From: Candidatus Falkowbacteria bacterium RIFOXYA2_FULL_38_12
GTDB taxonomy: Bacteria > Patescibacteriota > Patescibacteriia > XYB2-FULL-38-15
Assembly (NCBI GenBank): GCA_001778095.1
Contig: MFGA01000023.1
Location: forward strand, 46,811-110,810
Direction: 5' to 3'
Length of the DNA: 64,000 nucleotides
A program made the position numbers and the translations under genes. The notes below the pieces were generated by a model, which worked only from the letters and a program-made list of their open reading frames with translations, did no database searches and was not told the DNA's origin. Positions 6,314 through 15,308 of the stretch are shown in pieces; position 1 is the stretch's first letter, and each line of letters starts with the position of its first letter.

Positions 6314-6330
6314 GTTGATGGTTAAAAATA

Positions 6331-6360
6331 AAATCCGCTAGCCTTACCAGCGGATTTTTT
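6331..6360. terminator. bidirectional rho-independent terminator between convergent genes
   Basis: Stem AAATCCGCT / AGCGGATTT with a 9-nt loop, followed by TTTTTT on the plus strand and preceded by an A/T run, so it also works on the minus strand. Confidence 0.55.
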
Positions 6361-6381: not shown

Positions 6382-8091
6382 TTATTCCACTTCTTTTTCA
6401 ATATTTTTAATTTCTTTGCCGACAATTTCCGCAATATTGTTTATATCTCTTTTAATCTTTCTAATATTTTTCTCTTCCTCTGTAAATTTAATTTTTGATC
6501 TTCTCTTTTCCAGCAGTTTAGCCTGCTCTTGAATGTCTTCTTTTAGTAAATCAATCGTTCTGTAAAGAGCATATGTGGCTTCGCGGGCTTCTCTGCGGAT
6601 TTTTTTGCGAAGTGAGAAAAATTTATTTAGAACAAACGTAATGATGGCAAGCAAAAGAATAATAATCGCGACAACGGCAAGAGTTAGAAAATCTTGATCC
6701 CCTATTTTCTGCTGACCAACAACAAAAGAAACTTTATCGGTTGGTTTGCTCTTAGCGCCAACGCTATTCACTGCCTCTGCCCAAAATTCATAATTTCCCG
6801 CTGTTGCGGTTTCTTTCGCAGTAAAAATAAAATTTCCGCTTTTATCACTGTCTATAATATAGTTTTTTACATCCTTTCCCTGTTTTTGCAACCATAGGGA
6901 AACTCGGGTACCCGAGCCTGTTGCGCCTTTAAAAATAATTTTTTCTCCACTTTTGATTCCCTTCGGATAATCGATAATGTTGGGCATATCAAGTGGAGTA
7001 ATTTCAAATTCCGCCGAATCACCGACGGCATTACCCGCCTTATCTACAGCTCTTACATTTAAAATATGTTTACCAAAAATAAGCACCGAAGTTTCAAAAA
7101 TTCCATCTTCGTTTCCTTCCCAGATTTGCGTATTTTCTTTATCAATATCTATTTCATAGTAATCAATTCCGGATGTTCTATCTTCTGCTTGAATTTTAAA
7201 CTTAACCTTTGGATTAGTCAGATCTTCTCTCTTTTGCTCTTCTATTCTAAGACTAACTGGTTTTTCCATATCTATTTGAAAACGGAAATGAAAAATACTT
7301 CCCCAACCTGCGTCATTTTTTAAACGCGCGTGAAAATACCAAGTGCCATCCGACAAATCAAAAATCTCCTTAGATGTAATTGCTGATGTATAAGTTGTCG
7401 TTGGGGTAGATCGAGGTATTTTACTGATAAGCAACTGCGCTCCCTTTATTCCCTGCGGGACTGTCCAAACGAACTTTGCGTCTTCTGATGCATACCATTT
7501 GTCCTGATCCGGATGTGTTGGCGAAGAAATGTGCGGCGCGGAAGGCTTGTCGGAAATCACAGGCGCCGGCTTCACCTCGGGAGTAGTGGGAGTAGCGGCG
7601 CCTATGCTAAATTTAGCAGTTCCCAAACTTTTTAAAATATTTGTGCCATTTCCGTCGTTAGCTAAAACTGAACTTGAGGAAAAATTCAAAAGAGCCTCTC
7701 CGGCCTTTTTCGCTTTAAAGTTTATTGTAATAAGCTTTCCGCTGGCCCCCTTAAATCCCGGATTTAAAACGATACCCTCAAAATTTATTTTCCCCGTACT
7801 GTTTTGGAATGAAGGTTCTTGAACCCAGAGACTAAGAATAGAGCCACCTTTTGAGATAGAGGATACTTCTAATTGATCCTTGGGAAAAGAAACCGTTCCG
7901 GAAACCGCATTCATGACTTGGTCGGAACTTGAAACATAAATACCGACTGAAAAAGAAGAATTTGAAGAATATGACCAGCTGGATGGAGAAAAATATAAAT
8001 TGGCCGCTTTAGCAAAAGCCGGCCAACAAACAAAAAAAATAATCGCTGAAGAAAAAAATAATAAAATTTTTACTTTTTGCCTCCTCGCCAT
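6382..8091 (-). CDS. cell-surface protein: signal peptide, cohesin-like domain, Pro/Thr linker, Ig-like domains, single TM and ~80-aa charged coiled-coil cytoplasmic tail
   Basis: N-terminal hydrophobic signal. Residues ~40-150 share the pattern F.VG...V...NA..G...FP......G.SI...W...P...G.I.F.GI...NDG.GT with the next gene, which I read as cohesin-like. The SGIDYYEIDID motif is also shared with the paralog. C-terminal TM FLTLAVVAIIILLLAIITFVL is followed by a KR/E-rich tail. Confidence 0.5.
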   Translation of the reverse strand: MARRQKVKILLFFSSAIIFFVCWPAFAKAANLYFSPSSWSYSSNSSFSVGIYVSSSDQVMNAVSGTVSFPKDQLEVSSISKGGSILSLWVQEPSFQNSTGKINFEGIVLNPGFKGASGKLITINFKAKKAGEALLNFSSSSVLANDGNGTNILKSLGTAKFSIGAATPTTPEVKPAPVISDKPSAPHISSPTHPDQDKWYASEDAKFVWTVPQGIKGAQLLISKIPRSTPTTTYTSAITSKEIFDLSDGTWYFHARLKNDAGWGSIFHFRFQIDMEKPVSLRIEEQKREDLTNPKVKFKIQAEDRTSGIDYYEIDIDKENTQIWEGNEDGIFETSVLIFGKHILNVRAVDKAGNAVGDSAEFEITPLDMPNIIDYPKGIKSGEKIIFKGATGSGTRVSLWLQKQGKDVKNYIIDSDKSGNFIFTAKETATAGNYEFWAEAVNSVGAKSKPTDKVSFVVGQQKIGDQDFLTLAVVAIIILLLAIITFVLNKFFSLRKKIRREAREATYALYRTIDLLKEDIQEQAKLLEKRRSKIKFTEEEKNIRKIKRDINNIAEIVGKEIKNIEKEVE

Positions 8092-8939
8092 AGAATTATC
8101 GAAATCAAATATCCAATTACTATTACTAATATAGTTATTATAGCAAAAATTAAATATCTTTCATACCATTTTTCAATTTTCTGTCGCGGTAAAATAGCAA
8201 CTCTCTCGTTTCCCTTTCTATCTATGGCCTTTACTGTGATCTCTTTGCTTAAATTTTGATTTTCTAAAAGATATGGGCTTTCCGCTATAACGCATTTTTT
8301 CCCTTCGCATACTTCGTAATGATCAATCCCCGAGACTTTATCTTGACTGCTGAAAACTAAAAACTGCTTACCATTAAATATTTCCGGATCGCTTGTCATT
8401 ATCAATTCAATCGGCTCGGGAGGCTCAATATCTTTTTCCTCGGGAGCAATGGAAGATGGAAAAAGCTGGTCTTGTTTTAAAATATAAAAACCAGGGTTAG
8501 ATGTTTTTATATTTGCCTCTGTCCCCTCCCCGTCATTTTTTAATATTTTTACATTGTTAATTCCAAAAATACCCTGTCCTTCTTTAAGAGATTGAAATAC
8601 TGCCGAGAAAACCAAACCCTTTTTATCGGAATAGCCTCCGGGAATAATTCCCGAAAACATAATTTCTCCATTACTATTCTTTGGTTTGTCAATCCAAAAA
8701 TTAATAATGGAGTTGCCGTCTCTTATCTCTTTTAGAGAAATGATTTCTTCGGGGAATATTATTTTCCCCTCAATCGCGTTAATATCTTCATCTTCCGTAT
8801 TAACAAAAAATCCCGCTTCAAAGATATCGCCGACCCGAAAAGTTTGATTTTTTATTTCAAAAATCGTCTCTGCAGCGAAAGTAAAACGGGCTAAGAACAA
8901 AAAAAATAATATAAAAGTAAAAACAATAATTTTCCGCAT
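8070..8939 (-). CDS. cohesin-like domain protein with C-terminal membrane anchor (paralog of upstream gene)
   Basis: Signal peptide, a cohesin-like N-domain (NAIEGKIIFPEEIISLKEI...GEIMFSGIIPGG...LKNDGEGT), SGIDHYEV, and C-terminal TM LIFAIITILVIVIGYLISIILW followed by RGGKK. It overlaps the next gene by 22 nt. Confidence 0.5.
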   Translation of the reverse strand: MRKIIVFTFILFFLFLARFTFAAETIFEIKNQTFRVGDIFEAGFFVNTEDEDINAIEGKIIFPEEIISLKEIRDGNSIINFWIDKPKNSNGEIMFSGIIPGGYSDKKGLVFSAVFQSLKEGQGIFGINNVKILKNDGEGTEANIKTSNPGFYILKQDQLFPSSIAPEEKDIEPPEPIELIMTSDPEIFNGKQFLVFSSQDKVSGIDHYEVCEGKKCVIAESPYLLENQNLSKEITVKAIDRKGNERVAILPRQKIEKWYERYLIFAIITILVIVIGYLISIILWRGGKK

Positions 8940-8948
8940 AGTTTAAAA

Positions 8949-9992
8949 TTACCCCGTCCAGTAAAAAGCCATGATAGAAAAATCCACTATATTTATTTTT
9001 CCATCGTTATTTAATTTTTCCGCTTCTATTTTTTTAAAATCTGACGATAGGCTTCGTTTATACCAATAAGCGGCTATAGAAAAATCTATAAGATTAACTT
9101 TAAGGTCTCTGTTCAAATCTCCCTTAATTGAGATCTTTGTTGGCGCTTGATCCGATTCCGTTTCGGTTCCAACGGCAAAATTTACGGTTTTACTGAAAGA
9201 GCTAACCCCTCCTTCAAGAGCGGCCTTTGATTTTGTAGAATGCTTTCCCATCTCCAAGGGCGAAGTATCAAAGTTATATAAATATATACCTTCTTTGTCA
9301 GCATTTGTTTTTACAAAAAATTCTTCTTCTGAATTAACTGAAATTGTAACTTCAGCATTAGATGCGCTTTGACCGAAAATAGCAATATCTTCTCCTCTTT
9401 CAACAACGCTTTTATCAACTGCGATGGAGGGAGAAATAAAAATTCCACTTACTTGCGTCATCGCTCCTCTCGTAATAAAAACCGGAAATGTAAATAAGCT
9501 TGAACGCCTTCCCTGATTGTCTTCGCCATAAACGCCAAAAATATAATTTCCCGAAGACAAACCGGAAAGAGAAGCATTAAAGTTAGAATCCGGACCGGCA
9601 ATAGTAGTCAAAACAAGCTGGCCGTCTTTTAATATTCCGACCTTGCTTAATGGGTAGGCTCTTCCGGAAAAAATAACACTGGTGATAACAGCATCTCCTC
9701 CACCGCCTCCACTCCCACCGCCACCGCCGGATGTACAAGAAGAAGTATTAAAAGTACAATTTGCGTTGCACAACAAAGATCCGCCGGCATATCCTTTACT
9801 TACACAACTTGATCCAGCCAAATCAACTCCATCGCATTCTTCTCCCGACTCTTGAACATCATTCCCGCACAAAGCAAGAATTTCAATTCTTAAATTGGTC
9901 ACCCCGGAAACTGACGCGCCTTTTGGAAAAAAAATAAGAACGCAAAAAATAGCGAAGAAGAAAAAATATTTTATTTTTGATAAGAAAACCAT
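8949..9992 (-). CDS. secreted Cys-rich protein with C-terminal dockerin-like domain
   Basis: Signal peptide. CGNDVQESGEECDGVD...C matches the Myxococcus-type cysteine-rich repeat pattern C-G-N-x-x-x-E-x-G-E-E-C-D, followed by a Gly10 linker. The C-terminus GDLNRDLKVNLIDFSIAAYWYKRS...EKLNNDGKINIVDFSIMAFYW forms two dockerin-type calcium-binding repeats (D.N.DGK.N..D). Confidence 0.6.
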   Translation of the reverse strand: MVFLSKIKYFFFFAIFCVLIFFPKGASVSGVTNLRIEILALCGNDVQESGEECDGVDLAGSSCVSKGYAGGSLLCNANCTFNTSSCTSGGGGGSGGGGGDAVITSVIFSGRAYPLSKVGILKDGQLVLTTIAGPDSNFNASLSGLSSGNYIFGVYGEDNQGRRSSLFTFPVFITRGAMTQVSGIFISPSIAVDKSVVERGEDIAIFGQSASNAEVTISVNSEEEFFVKTNADKEGIYLYNFDTSPLEMGKHSTKSKAALEGGVSSFSKTVNFAVGTETESDQAPTKISIKGDLNRDLKVNLIDFSIAAYWYKRSLSSDFKKIEAEKLNNDGKINIVDFSIMAFYWTG

Positions 9993-9998
9993 AATTGG

Positions 9999-12900
9999 CT
10001 AATTAACGGCCGTAATGGTCAATACCATATCAATATCATAATCACTGGCGATTCCTTGTTCTCCGGGAATTTTTTGACTTATGGAAACCCCCTGCAACAC
10101 CCAATCACCGATGTCATCAGAACTAGCCGCTCCGGCAAGAATAGTAATGCTATTAACTGGTGTTTCGGCAACGGCATCAAAGGATGCCGAGGAACCCTTG
10201 GAAACATTATCAGTATCGCAAGCTCCACACTGACCGACCGTTAAAGTCGCAGTGGAAGGATTCACTGTCATTTGACCACCCACGGAATCGGCGTCATCAA
10301 CATCAACAGTATCAGTACATCCACCGCCTCCCGGGTCATTATAATCAAAATCGGAAGCCGCGCCATCCCAAACGTCTGTCGCCGGAGTTTCCGCCGCTAG
10401 AGTCAATGTCCAACCATTATTGGCGCCATTGTTATTATTAACATAAATTCGTTCCGTATTGGTGCCAAAGGAACCGGTTGTTGTCTGGCAAGCAAGACTA
10501 AATGCTCCCGAGCTCATCGCCATAGTCGGCGAACCAACCGAACTATAACCGACATTAACAATATCTGTGATTAAAAAGGCGTCGCTTTCTATAGTAATAA
10601 CCCCGGAAGAATAATCGTTCACGTCAAGGGCTATTCCATCGCTTGTTATACCATAGACATAGTACTCGCCGGCAACCATGCCCGTAGTATCCCACTCGCA
10701 AGTCGTCCCTCCTATTCCCTCAACTTGATTTTGGCATTCGTCTATTGCCGTTCCATCCAATCCACTCCCTGTAGAGTCATAATAAAAATCAACTGTAACA
10801 ACTTGTTCTCCATCGCTTAAACCGTAGGTGATATTAAAAGTATCTCCAATAGTAACCGTATCTGATATTCCATCTGGTTGAGAAATACTTAGAGAGGGGG
10901 CATTATTACTAGTTAAATCAATGACAGTATTCCCCATAAGATTATCTAAATCATTGTTGTACCAAACAGCATATAATCTTTCCTTATTCAACAAATTTCC
11001 TCTTAAATATCTAATATCATCAACCATCCCGCTTCCCAGCGCGCTTGATTCGGATCCCCAGTTGGCCCCGCCATCTGTAGATAATTTGTAATACACATTC
11101 ACGCTCGCATCCAGGGTTCCGCGCAAATACGCAACATAAATATTTTTATTGTCAACTTCATAATTTTGGTCAGTTATTGGCACCGGCATCATTACCGTCG
11201 CGTCATTTGTAAATAAATTTGTTTTTTGAGTAAATCCGTCTTCCCTCGAAAAATCATCAAAGTTCCAAAGTTCAATATTATTAGAAGAATCATCAGTGTA
11301 ATCTGCTAGAGCTAAAAAAACATCTCCAGTAGTTTTATTAATGGTGGCAGAGAACCATTGATCATAAATTGTATGATCCACTAAAGTAGCTATACTAGAC
11401 CAAGAATCCGGCCAAGTGTCAGCGGTTTCATTATAAATTTGATATTTAATCGCATTGTTAGCCGTTTGAGCTTTAATGGCAATAATGTCATCTCCAGTTT
11501 TAAGGGGAAGAAGTTGAATTTGATCACGCGCTACCGAGCTCCAAGTTGAGGGGGTTATATCGCTCCAAGTATCACCGACACCGTCGGTTGACTTGGAAAC
11601 TTTCCCTCCGACAGTATCAGTAAAATTGGCAGAAACAAATAACGCCCCGCCCGCCCCTCTTGTAATGCTTGGTGGGCCATCAACTGATTCGGTTATAGTG
11701 GTTGTTCCGGAAACAGCCATAACCACACTTCCCTTTAAAGTATCAGTGCTGGTATCAAGGTATGTATAATAGATATCATCCGAAGAATCGTCCGAAACTG
11801 CAATATGAATTTTTGTTCCACTAATATCGCCCGGGGTCCACTGATCATACCAAACCGAAATAGATGTACCATACACAGAGCCATCTATTGAGGTTGCTAT
11901 GTTATCCCAATTTTTTCCTCCATCCGTCGTTTTTTTATATGAAAAATATTCCGCAACGTCAATATAAAAAACATAACCAATTTGGTCAGTAGTAAAAACG
12001 ACCGAAGGAGATGGAGAAAATTCATCAGTAGTATCGGTAATTGAGGCGTCAATACTTACCTCAATCCCTGTCATTACAGTACTGCCATAAATATCATTTA
12101 GATCATCGTTGTACCAAACGATGTAAAGACGGCCATCGCTCAAAAAATTTCCGCGCAAAGATTTATGATCATCTCCAAACTCATTTAGCCTCACTGATTC
12201 GTCGCTCCAGGTACTCCCGCCATTAGCAGATTTTTTAAAATAGACATGCATGGTGTCTCCTAGCGTTCCCCGCAAATAAGAAACATAAATATCTCCATTA
12301 TTTTCATCTATAATGGGTACCGGCATCATTACTGTTGCATCATTATTAAATAAATTAGTTTGTTTGGAAAAACCTCCGCCCCGGCTACTGTCATCAAAAC
12401 TCCAAAACTCAATATCGTTAGTGGAGTCGCCTGTATAGCTTGCAAAGGTTAAAAAAACATCACCCGTTGATTTTTTAATAGACGCCGAAAACCATTGATC
12501 ATAAGTAGTATTTTCAACTAATGTAGCTATATTAGACCAAGAATCCGGCCAAGTATCGTTTGTTTCATCATAAATTTGATATTTAATGGCATCTGATCCG
12601 GTTTCGTCTTTGATGGCAATAATATCATTTCCGGTCTTGAGCGATAAAAGTTGAATTTGATCAATATTTACAGAGCTCCAAGTTGAGGGAGTAATATTAC
12701 CCCAAGTATCGCCGGCGCCATCGGTTGATTTGGAAATTTTTCCTCCGGCAGTGTTTGTAAAATTTCCTGATAAAAATAGGGCTCCTCCAGCGCCTTTTGT
12801 AATACCGGGCGAGCCGTCGTCATCCTCATCCAAGGTTGTTGTTCCGGAAATAACGCTTACCATGCTTCCTTTTAAAGTATCCGTGCTTGTATCAAGGAAA

Positions 12901-13460
12901 GTATAAAAAATATCGTCGGAAGCGTCATCGGAAGCGGCAATGTGAATTTTTGTTCCGGTAGTATCTCCCGGCGTCCATTGGTCGTACCAGACGGCAACCT
13001 TGGTCCATCCGGTGGTAGCTGAATCAATCGTAACTACCAAACCCCATGAAACTCCGCCATCAGCTGTTACTTTATAAACCAAATCTTGAGTGCTCGCGTC
13101 AATATAAAAAATATAACCGATCAAGCTGGTGGTAAAAACGACTGAAGGCGACGGACCATATTCGTCAGTGGCGTCGAGAGTAGTCGTATCAATCGTGCTC
13201 TCCGCCGCTTGCGCTTCTTCGGTTTCTGAAAAAAATAAAAACTGCGACCAGTTTGAAAAAATGAAAACAAAAATAAATAAAAAAACAAAAAAATCGCGCA
13301 AAAACTTTTTTTGCGCTAAAAAAACAAAACTAAATATTTTCAAGACTGTCTGCAAATATTTTTTCATTTCTCTTCCTATTTTTAGCGCGTGATTTTGTGC
13401 GGATTGAAATACTTTATTCAATAGGAGGCACTTTGATTTTTTCTCCTTCCTTGAGGCCAT
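9999..13460 (-). CDS. large secreted BNR/Asp-box repeat protein (two tandem ~390-aa propeller-like repeats) with C-terminal WxL-like domain
   Basis: Repeated S/T-x-D-G-x-x-W motifs (TADGGVSWG, STDGAGDTWG, SANGGSTWS, TTDGGKNWD, STDGVGDTWS, STDGGANWG). The two halves are ~60% identical. The C-terminal ~190 aa is ~75% identical to ORF 14583-15308 and carries NGWTLTLAA and DWVLQGV motifs. The start may instead be MKKYLQ at 13367; 13460 overlaps the upstream gene by 47 nt. Confidence 0.7.
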   Translation of the reverse strand: MASRKEKKSKCLLLNKVFQSAQNHALKIGREMKKYLQTVLKIFSFVFLAQKKFLRDFFVFLFIFVFIFSNWSQFLFFSETEEAQAAESTIDTTTLDATDEYGPSPSVVFTTSLIGYIFYIDASTQDLVYKVTADGGVSWGLVVTIDSATTGWTKVAVWYDQWTPGDTTGTKIHIAASDDASDDIFYTFLDTSTDTLKGSMVSVISGTTTLDEDDDGSPGITKGAGGALFLSGNFTNTAGGKISKSTDGAGDTWGNITPSTWSSVNIDQIQLLSLKTGNDIIAIKDETGSDAIKYQIYDETNDTWPDSWSNIATLVENTTYDQWFSASIKKSTGDVFLTFASYTGDSTNDIEFWSFDDSSRGGGFSKQTNLFNNDATVMMPVPIIDENNGDIYVSYLRGTLGDTMHVYFKKSANGGSTWSDESVRLNEFGDDHKSLRGNFLSDGRLYIVWYNDDLNDIYGSTVMTGIEVSIDASITDTTDEFSPSPSVVFTTDQIGYVFYIDVAEYFSYKKTTDGGKNWDNIATSIDGSVYGTSISVWYDQWTPGDISGTKIHIAVSDDSSDDIYYTYLDTSTDTLKGSVVMAVSGTTTITESVDGPPSITRGAGGALFVSANFTDTVGGKVSKSTDGVGDTWSDITPSTWSSVARDQIQLLPLKTGDDIIAIKAQTANNAIKYQIYNETADTWPDSWSSIATLVDHTIYDQWFSATINKTTGDVFLALADYTDDSSNNIELWNFDDFSREDGFTQKTNLFTNDATVMMPVPITDQNYEVDNKNIYVAYLRGTLDASVNVYYKLSTDGGANWGSESSALGSGMVDDIRYLRGNLLNKERLYAVWYNNDLDNLMGNTVIDLTSNNAPSLSISQPDGISDTVTIGDTFNITYGLSDGEQVVTVDFYYDSTGSGLDGTAIDECQNQVEGIGGTTCEWDTTGMVAGEYYVYGITSDGIALDVNDYSSGVITIESDAFLITDIVNVGYSSVGSPTMAMSSGAFSLACQTTTGSFGTNTERIYVNNNNGANNGWTLTLAAETPATDVWDGAASDFDYNDPGGGGCTDTVDVDDADSVGGQMTVNPSTATLTVGQCGACDTDNVSKGSSASFDAVAETPVNSITILAGAASSDDIGDWVLQGVSISQKIPGEQGIASDYDIDMVLTITAVN

Positions 13461-14565
13461 AAGGCGGTTGCAGTTTATTAACTTTAACCATTAGTTTCCA
13501 TGAAACGTTAAATTTCTTGGCTAGATCCTGAATTCCTTCTCCGGGATAGACTTCACAAACTATCCAATTTTTTTTGATCCACCTTTTTCTTTTTCGTGAT
13601 AACCATAAAAGGAAAATACTGAAAAATATAACTAAAAGAACGACTATCTCTATCGCTAATGCCGGAGCTTTAGGAAAGCTCCAAAACCAAACCGACGGAC
13701 CTTCGAGCCGAGTAATAAATTTTCCGCTCTTCACTCCCACTCCGGCTTCCGAATTATTGTCATACTCAACAACAAAATTAGAACGGAATAATCCGCCCCA
13801 GAACGGTTTTTTAAGCTCAAAATTCCAATCTGACGTTTCTCCGCGCAAAATCGGATATTCTCCGCCGTGGATAAAATAGGTTGATCCAAAAAAATATTTT
13901 GTTATCACTCTTGCGTTCGCTTCAATGGAAACGTTTCCTGTATTTTTCACAAAAGGACGCAACAAAAAACCATTTTTATCCGGTTTCACCGTAAAACCGA
14001 CAATTTCCACTTTCCGCACAAGAGTTCCCGGAATTGTGATAGCCACCCTAAGTCCTGTCCGAAAAGACAAGCTGGCGCCACTCCCGGCTTTAGCTTTTTC
14101 CTTTTTCTCTTGCATGACAATACAACCATTGTGTTCGCCAACGCTGGCGTTTTGAGGAACATTTATGGTAAACGGCACAATTTCACTTGTTCCGGGTGCA
14201 AGTGTTACTTCTGTTTTAAGAAGATTCATCCAAGCGCCAACATCTTTTTTTGCTTCTGAAGCTTGAGCGCAAGCAAAAGCTCCACCCGTAGATGGGGTGG
14301 AGTCAACTCCGTAAACAAGTATTGTTTTAGCTTCAGCGGAATTATTTACAGTCAATACACCTTCTTCCTGAATATCGCCCGGCTCAAGCGTGTGAATGAA
14401 GATAGATTCTGTGTGCGAATTTTCCTCTCTGGGATATGCCGGTCTTCCACCAAAGCCACCATACTCAATAGCTGAAACATTTCCGGCAAACAGTACTATC
14501 GTTAAAATTGCTAAAACAAAGCTAAAAAATCTTGATTTTTTGTTTTTAGCTCTCAATTTTTTCAT
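13414..14565 (-). CDS. cell-surface protein with signal peptide, beta-rich ectodomain, C-terminal TM and post-TM LysM domain (CscA/DUF916-like architecture)
   Basis: Signal FFSFVLAILTIVLFAGNVSA; TM LAIEIVVLLVIFFSIFLLWL followed by KRKRW; C-terminal CEVYPGEGIQDLAKKFNVSWKLMVKVNKLQPPYGLKEGEKIKVP matches LysM. The family call is by architecture and context only. Confidence 0.5.
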   Translation of the reverse strand: MKKLRAKNKKSRFFSFVLAILTIVLFAGNVSAIEYGGFGGRPAYPREENSHTESIFIHTLEPGDIQEEGVLTVNNSAEAKTILVYGVDSTPSTGGAFACAQASEAKKDVGAWMNLLKTEVTLAPGTSEIVPFTINVPQNASVGEHNGCIVMQEKKEKAKAGSGASLSFRTGLRVAITIPGTLVRKVEIVGFTVKPDKNGFLLRPFVKNTGNVSIEANARVITKYFFGSTYFIHGGEYPILRGETSDWNFELKKPFWGGLFRSNFVVEYDNNSEAGVGVKSGKFITRLEGPSVWFWSFPKAPALAIEIVVLLVIFFSIFLLWLSRKRKRWIKKNWIVCEVYPGEGIQDLAKKFNVSWKLMVKVNKLQPPYGLKEGEKIKVPPIE

Positions 14566-14582
14566 AGTTTAATACCCCCTTA

Positions 14583-15308
14583 TTATCCAGCGGCTACAAT
14601 TGAAAGAACCATATTAATATCGTAATCAGCCGCAGCTGCTTGTTCTGCGGGGATTTTCTGGCTTATAGCGACGCCCTGCAATGTCCAATCGCCAATATCA
14701 TCAGAACCGGCCGCTCCGGTAAGAACAGTGATACTATTGACTGGGGCAACATCAACAGCATCAAAAGCCGCCGAAGAACCTTTTGTGACATTAGTAACCA
14801 CACAACTTGCACATTGACCAACGGCTAAAGTTCCTGCCGCAGGATTGACTGTCATTTGACCACCGACCAAATCAACATCATCGTCATCGGTTGTATCAGT
14901 GCAACCGGAACCAGCGGGGTCGTTGTAATCAAAATCCGAGGCCGCGCCATCCCAGACATCCGTAGCCGGGGTTGCCGCCGCCAAACTTAATGTCCAACCG
15001 CCATCAGCGGCATCCGGATTTGTAACGTAAATCTGCTCTGATGCCGTGCCGAAAGAACCGGTTACGGTTTGACAAACCAAACTGAAATTTGCCGAACTCA
15101 TTGCCATTGTCGGACTGCCTACGGTAACATAAGTACCGTTAACAATATCTGTGGCAAGAGTACCGGCACCGATTGTTTGAGTAAAATTCGATGTTGACGA
15201 GGCAAAAACATAAGTGATGCCCCCAAATCCTCCGGCAACTATGATTGCTAGCGCCAAAGCGATTGCAATGTTTAGCCGTCTTAGGGCTTTTTGAACTAAT
15301 TTGTTCAT
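14583..15308 (-). CDS. small secreted WxL-like domain protein (paralog of the C-terminus of the 1153-aa protein)
   Basis: Signal/TM AIALALAIIVAGG, then a ~190-aa domain containing GGWTLSLAAATP and IGDWTLQGVAIS. The DNA is ~75% identical to 9999-10570. Confidence 0.6.
   Translation of the reverse strand: MNKLVQKALRRLNIAIALALAIIVAGGFGGITYVFASSTSNFTQTIGAGTLATDIVNGTYVTVGSPTMAMSSANFSLVCQTVTGSFGTASEQIYVTNPDAADGGWTLSLAAATPATDVWDGAASDFDYNDPAGSGCTDTTDDDDVDLVGGQMTVNPAAGTLAVGQCASCVVTNVTKGSSAAFDAVDVAPVNSITVLTGAAGSDDIGDWTLQGVAISQKIPAEQAAAADYDINMVLSIVAAG

Follow-up and report, generated by a model that had tools for sequence, protein, structure and literature searches.

The question raised by a run of six closely spaced genes on the minus strand of a 64-kb stretch of DNA from Candidatus Falkowbacteria bacterium RIFOXYA2_FULL_38_12 (64,000 nucleotides (nt) of contig MFGA01000023.1, positions 46,811 to 110,810, hereafter the window) is what kind of apparatus their products might build at the surface of the cell. 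The Patescibacteria (CPR bacteria), the ultra-small group to which this organism belongs, make up a substantial part of the diversity of bacteria and, it appears, live attached to other cells; to our knowledge, little has been learned of the surface structures that mediate such attachment beyond type IV pili and a few adhesins. Favoured here, at a probability of roughly 60%, is a reading in which the products of the operon form a protein assembly of two modules on the surface of the patescibacterial cell and serve attachment, one module comprising a WxLIP homologue together with two proteins that share a domain termed X, and the other a cohesin-dockerin set.

The six open reading frames (ORFs) lie at 14583-15308 (G1, 241 amino acids (aa), the small X protein), 13414-14565 (G2, 383 aa, the WxLIP (DUF916) homologue), 9999-13460 (G3, 1153 aa, the large X protein), 8949-9992 (G4, 347 aa, a secreted protein with a C-terminal dockerin), 8070-8939 (G5, 289 aa) and 6382-8091 (G6, 569 aa), the last two being membrane-anchored cohesin-like proteins; all of these, and all the features described below within them, are on the minus strand. 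The successive intergenic gaps from G1 to G6 are 17, -47, 6, 9 and -22 nt, the second of these becoming +46 if G3 starts at the internal ATG at 13367, and a strong terminator-like hairpin on the same strand (6330-6358; a 13-bp stem and then a T-run) closes the operon directly 3' of the G6 stop codon. Each of the six products has an N-terminal hydrophobic segment, and G2, G5 and G6 additionally possess a C-terminal transmembrane (TM) helix. The coordinates, gaps and secreted or membrane-bound character given in the initial annotation, which had described six tightly packed genes for secreted or membrane-anchored proteins, were thus reproduced throughout, and no further copies of these protein families were found elsewhere in the 64-kb window. 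Because several Pfam matches of the window's own proteins fell just below the curated cut-offs, domain assignments were tested at the level of families, using orthologues from related loci.

On sequence evidence, G2 is a genuine WxLIP (DUF916) homologue. Its own match to Pfam WxLIP_PGBD (DUF916, PF06030) scored 26.0 bits (E 1e-5) against a cut-off of 27.3, a match was recorded in 30 of the 37 members of its family (best 9e-9), and the family profile matched the solved structure of EfmWxLIP1 (9i25_C, 9i1y_A) at about 9e-8. With G2 as the tblastn query, annotated DUF916 proteins on actinobacterial plasmids were retrieved at E values down to 3e-12, the alignments extending to aa 229-240. The protein is made up of a signal peptide (hydrophobic aa 15-33), a PGBD-like domain (aa 42-152, 14110-14442), a second conserved region of ~140 aa (aa ~155-300) to which no family could be assigned and the length of which would suit an HBD, and a TM helix (aa 302-322, about 13600-13662). 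Behind this helix come basic residues (SRKRKRW) and, at aa 339-380 (13426-13551), a LysM domain. The earlier description of a CscA-like gene, with signal peptide, ectodomain and C-terminal TM helix, was therefore borne out, as was that of a LysM domain in the operon, which scored above the Pfam cut-off in G2 (25.3 bits against 20.9); a LysM match was present in 35 of the 37 family members, and the family profile matched many solved LysM domains. A reported link between DUF916 and a histidine-brace metalloprotein (PMC12537917) was judged irrelevant here.

The two genes that flank G2 encode proteins sharing the X domain, which is specific to the CPR, spans ~190 aa and accounts for aa 49-241 of G1 (14586-15164) and for the C-terminal aa 963-1153 of G3 (10002-10574); in a pairwise comparison, G1 and the C-terminus of G3 were 72% identical over 189 aa in an ungapped alignment. 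W-T/V-L occurs at two positions in each (105 and 208 in G1, 1017 and 1120 in G3), and W105 and W208 are invariant among X homologues, where they lie within W-x-[LV] motifs. A search of 1.84 billion representatives with an X profile returned 671 proteins, and among the 150 matches listed X was found either alone in proteins of ~230 aa or at the extreme C-terminus of proteins of 330-1961 aa. Homologues of G1 from Doudna-, Azam-, Falkow-, Nomura-, Kerfeld-, Peregrini- and Gracilibacteria were 58-78% identical, and no Pfam annotation was found in them. Four cysteines of the domain are near-invariant (C79, C136, C166 and C169) and a very acidic loop (DFDYNDPAGSGCTDTTDDDDVD) is conserved, features that in the sequence suggest disulfides and possibly metal binding; with these cysteines in X and an N-terminal hydrophobic segment in every one of the six, the proteins look extracytoplasmic.

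In G3, the X domain is preceded by an N-terminal hydrophobic segment, by two repeats of ~380 aa that are 64% identical (repeat 1, 12057-13205; repeat 2, 10911-12056), and by an Ig-like spacer (aa 855-932) with a weak Big_7 match. Each repeat contains two strict Asp-box-like motifs (T/S-x-D/N-G-G-x-x-W, beginning at aa 132, 411, 511 and 794) and one variant, three of six repeat homologues matched BNR and two matched BNR_2 (best 2.2e-5), and the propellers resemble lectins and glycosidases. The proposal that the 1153-aa protein carries two BNR/Asp-box propeller units was accordingly sustained, whereas its 'sialidase-like' qualification was rejected: no F/YRIP (xRIP) motif was found in G3 and no invariant Arg among the six aligned repeats, and a protein with neither a conserved Arg triad nor a FRIP motif is unlikely to be sialidase-like. 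As judged from these residues, the propellers are more likely to be of lectin than of sialidase type.

By way of the remaining three genes the operon acquires its second module. G4 consists of a Cys-rich segment (aa ~42-86, 9735-9866; CGNDVQESGEECDG...C...C...C...C), a glycine linker, Ig-like domains of the Big_6 type and a C-terminal two-repeat dockerin (aa 290-347, 8952-9125). Its own Dockerin_1 score was 22.0 bits for a cut-off of 22.9; the model matched 16 of the 19 G4-family members (best 1.2e-7), and the family profile matched the PDB dockerins 2y3n_B (1e-6), 5nrm_B, 1daq and 2mte, in agreement with the two-repeat dockerin that had been read in this gene. The calcium-loop residues D292, D296, D303, D330 and D337 are invariant in the family, although position 1 of the second loop in G4 itself is neither Asp nor Asn. 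Two smaller points of the initial annotation needed qualification: the linker, given as Gly10, is a run of glycines interrupted by serine (G5-S-G5, that is five Gly, Ser, five Gly), and the Myxococcus-type cysteine-rich repeat is a resemblance at the level of motif, recurrent in 5 related loci, for which no Pfam or NCBIfam match was obtained.

The adjoining genes encode two paralogous candidate partners, with N-termini 30% identical over 143 aa (E 6e-19) and a common SGIDxYE domain. In G5 a cohesin-like domain (aa ~22-165, 8445-8876) precedes an Ig-like domain with the SGIDHYE motif, and a TM helix (aa 264-282) lies at the C-terminus; G6 comprises a cohesin-like domain (aa 43-148, 7648-7965), an SGIDYYE domain, an Ig domain of the Big_13 type and a TM helix (aa 469-487), after which a cytoplasmic tail of ~75 aa (80 aa in the initial annotation) is charged and probably forms a coiled coil. 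G6 scored 23.8 bits against Pfam Cohesin (cut-off 24.1), with matches in 10 of 15 G6-family members (best 1.8e-7) and no cohesin match when the family profile was compared with the PDB; for G5, the Cohesin model matched 2 of 18 family members, and the family profile matched the Ruminococcus flavefaciens cohesins 5aoz_A (3.7e-4) and 5m2o_A. As far as sequence comparison goes, the assignments of a dockerin in G4 and of cohesin-like N-termini in G5 and G6 hold at the family level, and the earlier reading of two paralogues each with a cohesin-like N-terminus, an SGIDxYE domain and a C-terminal TM helix is thereby supported. As in established cohesin-dockerin pairs, the two-repeat dockerin displays the D-x-N-x-D...D calcium-loop residues and its gene directly adjoins the cohesin genes; unlike classic dockerin proteins, G4 has no enzyme, and bears the Cys-rich segment and Ig-like domains instead, while G5 and G6, unlike cohesins anchored by SLH domains or sortase, are held by their own C-terminal TM helix. 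The likeness is qualified by the Pfam scores of the window's own proteins, which lie just under the curated cut-offs.

Conservation of the locus in relatives was assessed by a scan restricted to one genome per species, which gave 79 loci, nearly all in metagenome-assembled genomes (MAGs) of Patescibacteria, and by searching all reading frames of related loci with the window's domains. A G2-like gene stood directly after a small X gene in 78 of 82 loci; among the 45 loci with at least 8 kb of downstream sequence, 37 encoded a large protein (307-2226 aa) with X at its C-terminus and 15 also contained a dockerin gene and cohesin-like gene(s). The genes of conserved loci lay on one strand and kept the window's order. 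A lack of conserved gene order had been named beforehand as a finding that would weaken the operon claim, and what emerged was an order retained across many Patescibacteria lineages. The trio of G1, G2 and large X occurred alone in Kerfeldbacteria, Dojkabacteria, Gracilibacteria and others, the same core being confirmed by two separate look-ups in Kerfeldbacteria and Gracilibacteria. Among the lineages with at least the core trio were Parcubacteria-type groups, Microgenomates, Dojkabacteria and Gracilibacteria/Peribacteria, as well as contigs carrying a Saccharibacteria label. Ahead of X, the large proteins differed by lineage, with Laminin_G_3, DUF2341, an SdiA-regulated propeller, H_lectin, DUF7483 or nothing recognisable, a variation that points to a conserved anchor with variable heads. 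An unusually well conserved core with interchangeable lectin-like heads is the pattern expected of an anchoring platform for lineage-specific ligand binding.

An assembly of the following kind can be envisaged. In the first module (G1-G2-G3), G2 would be seated in the membrane by its C-terminal TM helix and, as the WxL literature leads one to suppose, would hold G1 and G3 by their X domains, the binding of X to G2 possibly proceeding, by analogy with WxL and WxLIP, through β-strand insertion next to the N-terminus of X. The conserved anchor would then be X, and the variable binding head, facing outward, would be formed by the N-terminal sequence of the large protein, G3 projecting its two lectin-like propellers outward, ahead of the Ig-like spacer. 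In the second module (G4-G5-G6), the membrane-anchored G5 and G6 would, on the model of cohesin-dockerin biology, bind the secreted G4 through its Ca2+-type dockerin. Both modules would furnish the cell surface with domains that bind glycans or ligands and thereby attach the cell to a host cell or a substrate. It is by analogy with these better known systems that we infer the physical contacts, the surface display and the adhesion function, and cooperation of the two modules and attachment to a host cell are speculative.

Several results weigh against an assembly so conceived. The HBD (DUF3324, PF11797) that would complete a WxLIP gave no match in G2 or in any of the 37 family members. The LysM domain of G2 (aa 302-380 with the preceding helix, 13426-13662) follows a single TM helix and a basic stretch of charge +7 (SRKRKRWIKKNW), a layout kept in 35 of 37 members; since it is C-terminal to both, the positive-inside rule predicts that it should be cytoplasmic, and a LysM domain so placed cannot simply tether the complex to peptidoglycan. 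As to X, Pfam WxL (PF13731) matched neither G1 nor G3 at E up to 1 and none of 36 X homologues (0/36), the X profile had no match among all PDB sequences at E up to 10, an hmmsearch profile from a 148-sequence X alignment scored less than 7 bits on seven Firmicute small WxL proteins, and the X model had no structural match to the solved WxL chain 9i25_A. When X was compared by hhalign with Firmicute and actinobacterial small proteins, probabilities of 0.3-4% were obtained, unrelated secreted families scoring equally or higher. A possibly related DUF916/WxL-like cluster of the cultured Southlakia epibionticum, described below, proved dispensable for epibiotic growth, and the dockerin-cohesin module was present in only about one third of adequately sampled loci.

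The comparison set for X consisted of bona fide plasmid-borne WxL clusters of Rossellomorea, Enterococcus and Lactococcus together with DUF916 loci from Actinobacteria; homology searches seeded with the Rossellomorea WxL protein and with the C-terminus of the large WxL protein of Enterococcus faecalis yielded no useful WxL homologues. A colinear hhalign alignment of X with WxL at P about 0.01 was rejected as evidence because unrelated secreted families from the same operon, the controls, scored as high or higher. The two motifs of X are 103 aa apart, and for small WxL proteins a similar spacing of ~106 aa has been reported; the second W-x-L of X stands 33 residues from the C-terminus, whereas the canonical WxL motif is terminal, and the WxL flanking consensus (D/R turn, Y at W-6) is unmatched. 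Of the initial claim of a WxL-like C-terminal domain, then, the sharing of ~190 aa between two proteins and the two W-T/V-L sites survived, and the similarity to WxL was undetected by Pfam, hhalign and fold search. What WxL-likeness X may possess would appear to lie solely in cluster architecture and motif resemblance.

This negative result is nonetheless tempered by the behaviour of WxL proteins that are not in dispute. A complete but unannotated enterococcal cluster (L084 5682-9568, on the E. faecalis plasmid LR962590.1) encodes an LPKTG protein, a strong WxLIP, a 609-aa lectin-WxL protein and a 195-aa small protein, and yet its WxL proteins either reach just 18 bits with Pfam WxL, short of the cut-off, or give no match at all, from which it follows that the Pfam model misses many true members; the partner proteins of actinobacterial DUF916 are likewise unannotated. 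Evidently the partner domain of WxLIP is very divergent, and these loci together with the window suggest a diversity well beyond what the Pfam WxL model captures. The operon is best filed as a Patescibacteria-wide, WxLIP-centred cluster with a partner domain that is not demonstrably WxL.

The limited distribution of the dockerin and cohesin genes bears on whether the two trios belong together at all, and the modules may be functionally separable, given that both kinds of gene occur in only 15 of the 45 loci. Taken further, the X/WxLIP trio and the dockerin/cohesin trio could be two independent systems that are merely adjacent and co-transcribed here, as the occurrence of the first trio alone in several lineages would allow and as might be expected when no domain of the first module is an obvious partner for the second. 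Where both are present, however, the order (small X, WxLIP, large X, dockerin, cohesin, cohesin) and the strand are invariant across distant lineages and the gaps are tiny or negative, which argues for functional coupling and makes full independence doubtful.

Comparison with known systems places the first module, within the favoured two-module reading, close to the WxL/Csc clusters of Bacilli (Enterococcus faecium loci A-C, E. faecalis elr and Lactobacillus plantarum csc). A WxL cluster has been defined as a small domain-only WxL protein and a large protein with a C-terminal WxL domain around a WxLIP gene (PMC9772566, PMC10599100), and the layout of G1-G2-G3 is exactly that of the WxL cluster of Hassan and Williamson, the flanking proteins here carrying X, the WxL identity of which is unproven. 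In the Bacilli clusters, too, the WxLIP-type protein begins with a signal peptide and has a C-terminal TM helix, and it is accompanied by one small domain-only protein and by one large protein in which the domain is C-terminal behind variable binding domains; their genes are likewise adjacent and on the same strand, their mature small protein is about 190 aa, and two invariant Trp residues occur in W-x-L/V about 100 residues apart. Differences were apparent as well: X is far more conserved than Firmicute WxL (58-78% identity between lineages); G2 has an extra LysM domain after the TM helix and an undetectable HBD/DUF3324, where Firmicute WxLIPs end in a short basic tail; and the window operon has no LPxTG protein or sortase and belongs to a Patescibacteria host. 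WxLIP-centred clusters have been reported as more than 91% Firmicute, and the present loci extend them from mainly Firmicutes to a distant radiation.

The closest counterpart within the Patescibacteria is the cluster SEML1_0625-0628 of Southlakia epibionticum (Saccharibacteria), which was annotated by structure as DUF916/WxL-like in a supplementary table and does not figure in the main-text discussion (Wang et al. 2023, PMC10633639). In the library searched, no literature combining WxL or DUF916 with Patescibacteria or Saccharibacteria was found other than that supplementary table. Compared by annotation only, it likewise has a DUF916-like protein adjoining a ~190-aa protein structurally like a 'WxL domain-containing protein', and a large protein (1284 aa) with two beta-propellers and Ig domains. 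Its DUF916-like protein is 316 aa long, so that, unlike G2, it probably has no LysM domain; its propellers, unlike those of G3, are assigned to 7-bladed ECOD domains and match RCC1 repeats in Pfam; and an LPXTG-like small protein is present, with no cohesin or dockerin genes noted. By transposon sequencing (Tn-seq; PMC10633639), none of the four genes proved essential for epibiotic growth, the point already counted against an attachment role. The essential Southlakia dockerin protein SEML1_0315 was considered as an orthologue of G4 and rejected, being a stand-alone protein of 927 aa in an unrelated neighbourhood.

A different use of the same components is suggested by the small X proteins, in which a conserved segment of 13 aa (aa 36-48 of G1, 15165-15203; ASSTSNFTQTIGA) follows the signal or anchor segment (hydrophobic aa 14-32). 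Across 59 small-X representatives this segment showed A at 69%, Q at 61% and I at 71%, and its columns were 45-92% gaps in 91 large-X representatives; in the monomer AlphaFold model of G1, aa 28-48 formed the least confident part, with a predicted local distance difference test (pLDDT) score below 50. The best structural matches of the X model were CfaE-CfaB, FmlH, PapG, CsuA/B, CooA and self-complemented FimA, which are pilins or pilin domains of adhesins. The G1 segment could be a donor or contact strand, and this small-X-only segment together with the pilin-like structural neighbours allows a reading in which small X polymerises, or caps large X, by lodging its N-terminal extension in the X domain of an adjacent subunit, the WxLIP-like protein serves as a membrane-bound, PapD-like chaperone or base, and large X, with its lectin heads and no extension, is the tip adhesin of a short pilus-like fibre, in place of a static complex bound to the wall.

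PDB 4b0m chain M we take to be the Caf1M chaperone. The first domain of the Southlakia DUF916-like protein belongs to ECOD e4b0mM4, in an Ig/Fn3/E-set/PapD-like group (PMC10633639 supplement), and WxLIP, in the published description (PMC10599100), consists of two Ig-like domains set perpendicular to each other, with strand insertion into WxL predicted, both of which speak for such a fibre, as does the high identity of small X across lineages, which is exceptional in an adhesin and what one typically sees in subunits that self-assemble. Chaperone-usher pili, invoked as an analogy only, similarly have a two-part adhesin (N-terminal lectin, C-terminal pilin-like domain) like large X, a small subunit with an N-terminal extension, and a partner with two Ig-like domains. 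They differ in having an usher: no usher or sortase gene was found in the operon, none of the six proteins gave a Pfam or NCBIfam match to an usher or the PapD family, and the envelope is of monoderm type; the likeness is one of structural analogy. As the conserved segment is equally explicable as a contact site for WxLIP, a donor-strand fibre is considered unlikely, and the broader proposition that the X/WxLIP module is a hitherto overlooked system of donor-strand assembly in monoderm-type cells, in which the almost invariant small X would complete the fold of the next X domain, large X proteins with exchangeable lectin heads would make the tips, and the cytoplasmic G2 LysM domain and the G6 coiled-coil tail would couple surface to interior, a shade more unlikely again. 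If the donor-strand reading were true, Firmicute WxL clusters would be recast as chaperone-usher-like machines without an usher, and Patescibacteria would possess, next to type IV pili, a further organelle of attachment that resembles a pilus.

Outside the Patescibacteria, the best tblastn matches of G2 were to DUF916 loci on actinobacterial plasmids (Clavibacter, Cellulosimicrobium and Arthrobacter), in which a small unannotated secreted protein (~170-215 aa) is likewise encoded directly upstream of the DUF916 gene; the Cellulosimicrobium locus continues with a large LamG protein, comparable with the large protein of the window trio. Unlike the window, these loci have no LysM and no X domain. 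The order of small protein and then DUF916 was also seen in Bacillaceae plasmid loci. The actinobacterial pairs, at L085 5137-6951, L091 5055-10210 and L090 5335-6912, look like unrecognised WxL-type clusters outside the Firmicutes.

The pairs of Clavibacter and Cellulosimicrobium sit among genes for GH43, LamG and sugar (ATP-binding cassette, ABC) transporters, a setting that recalls the role in carbohydrate capture which Siezen 2006 (PMC1534035) proposed for Lactobacillus csc clusters. On that model the present assembly would bind, and perhaps degrade, extracellular glycans to feed a metabolically reduced cell, with no part in cell-cell adhesion, and both the likeness of the G3 propellers to lectins and glycosidases and the classic place of cohesin-dockerin pairs in polysaccharide-degrading complexes would fit. 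Against this, Pfam and NCBIfam searches of the six proteins revealed no catalytic glycoside hydrolase domain, the propellers are without the catalytic residues sought above, and no transporter or sugar-metabolism genes were found adjoining the operon, so that a purely nutritional role seems improbable. Under the attachment reading that we prefer, as under this one, the six genes offer concrete, testable candidates for the proteins by which uncultured episymbionts attach to hosts or capture glycans.

Two further observations were made on the loci collected. The Patescibacteria-type cluster was encountered on contigs titled Gammaproteobacteria, Ectothiorhodospiraceae, Pseudomonadales, Christensenellaceae and Alphaproteobacteria (L006, L015, L020, L025, L033, L044, L048, L049, L054, L058, L064, L065 and L067); such titles probably reflect mislabelled or mis-binned MAGs rather than true hosts. 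Two to four tandem small-X paralogues were present in the Gracilibacteria/Peribacteria loci L003, L010, L028-L032 and L051, the ORFs of which were split under translation table 11, consistent with recoding of UGA.

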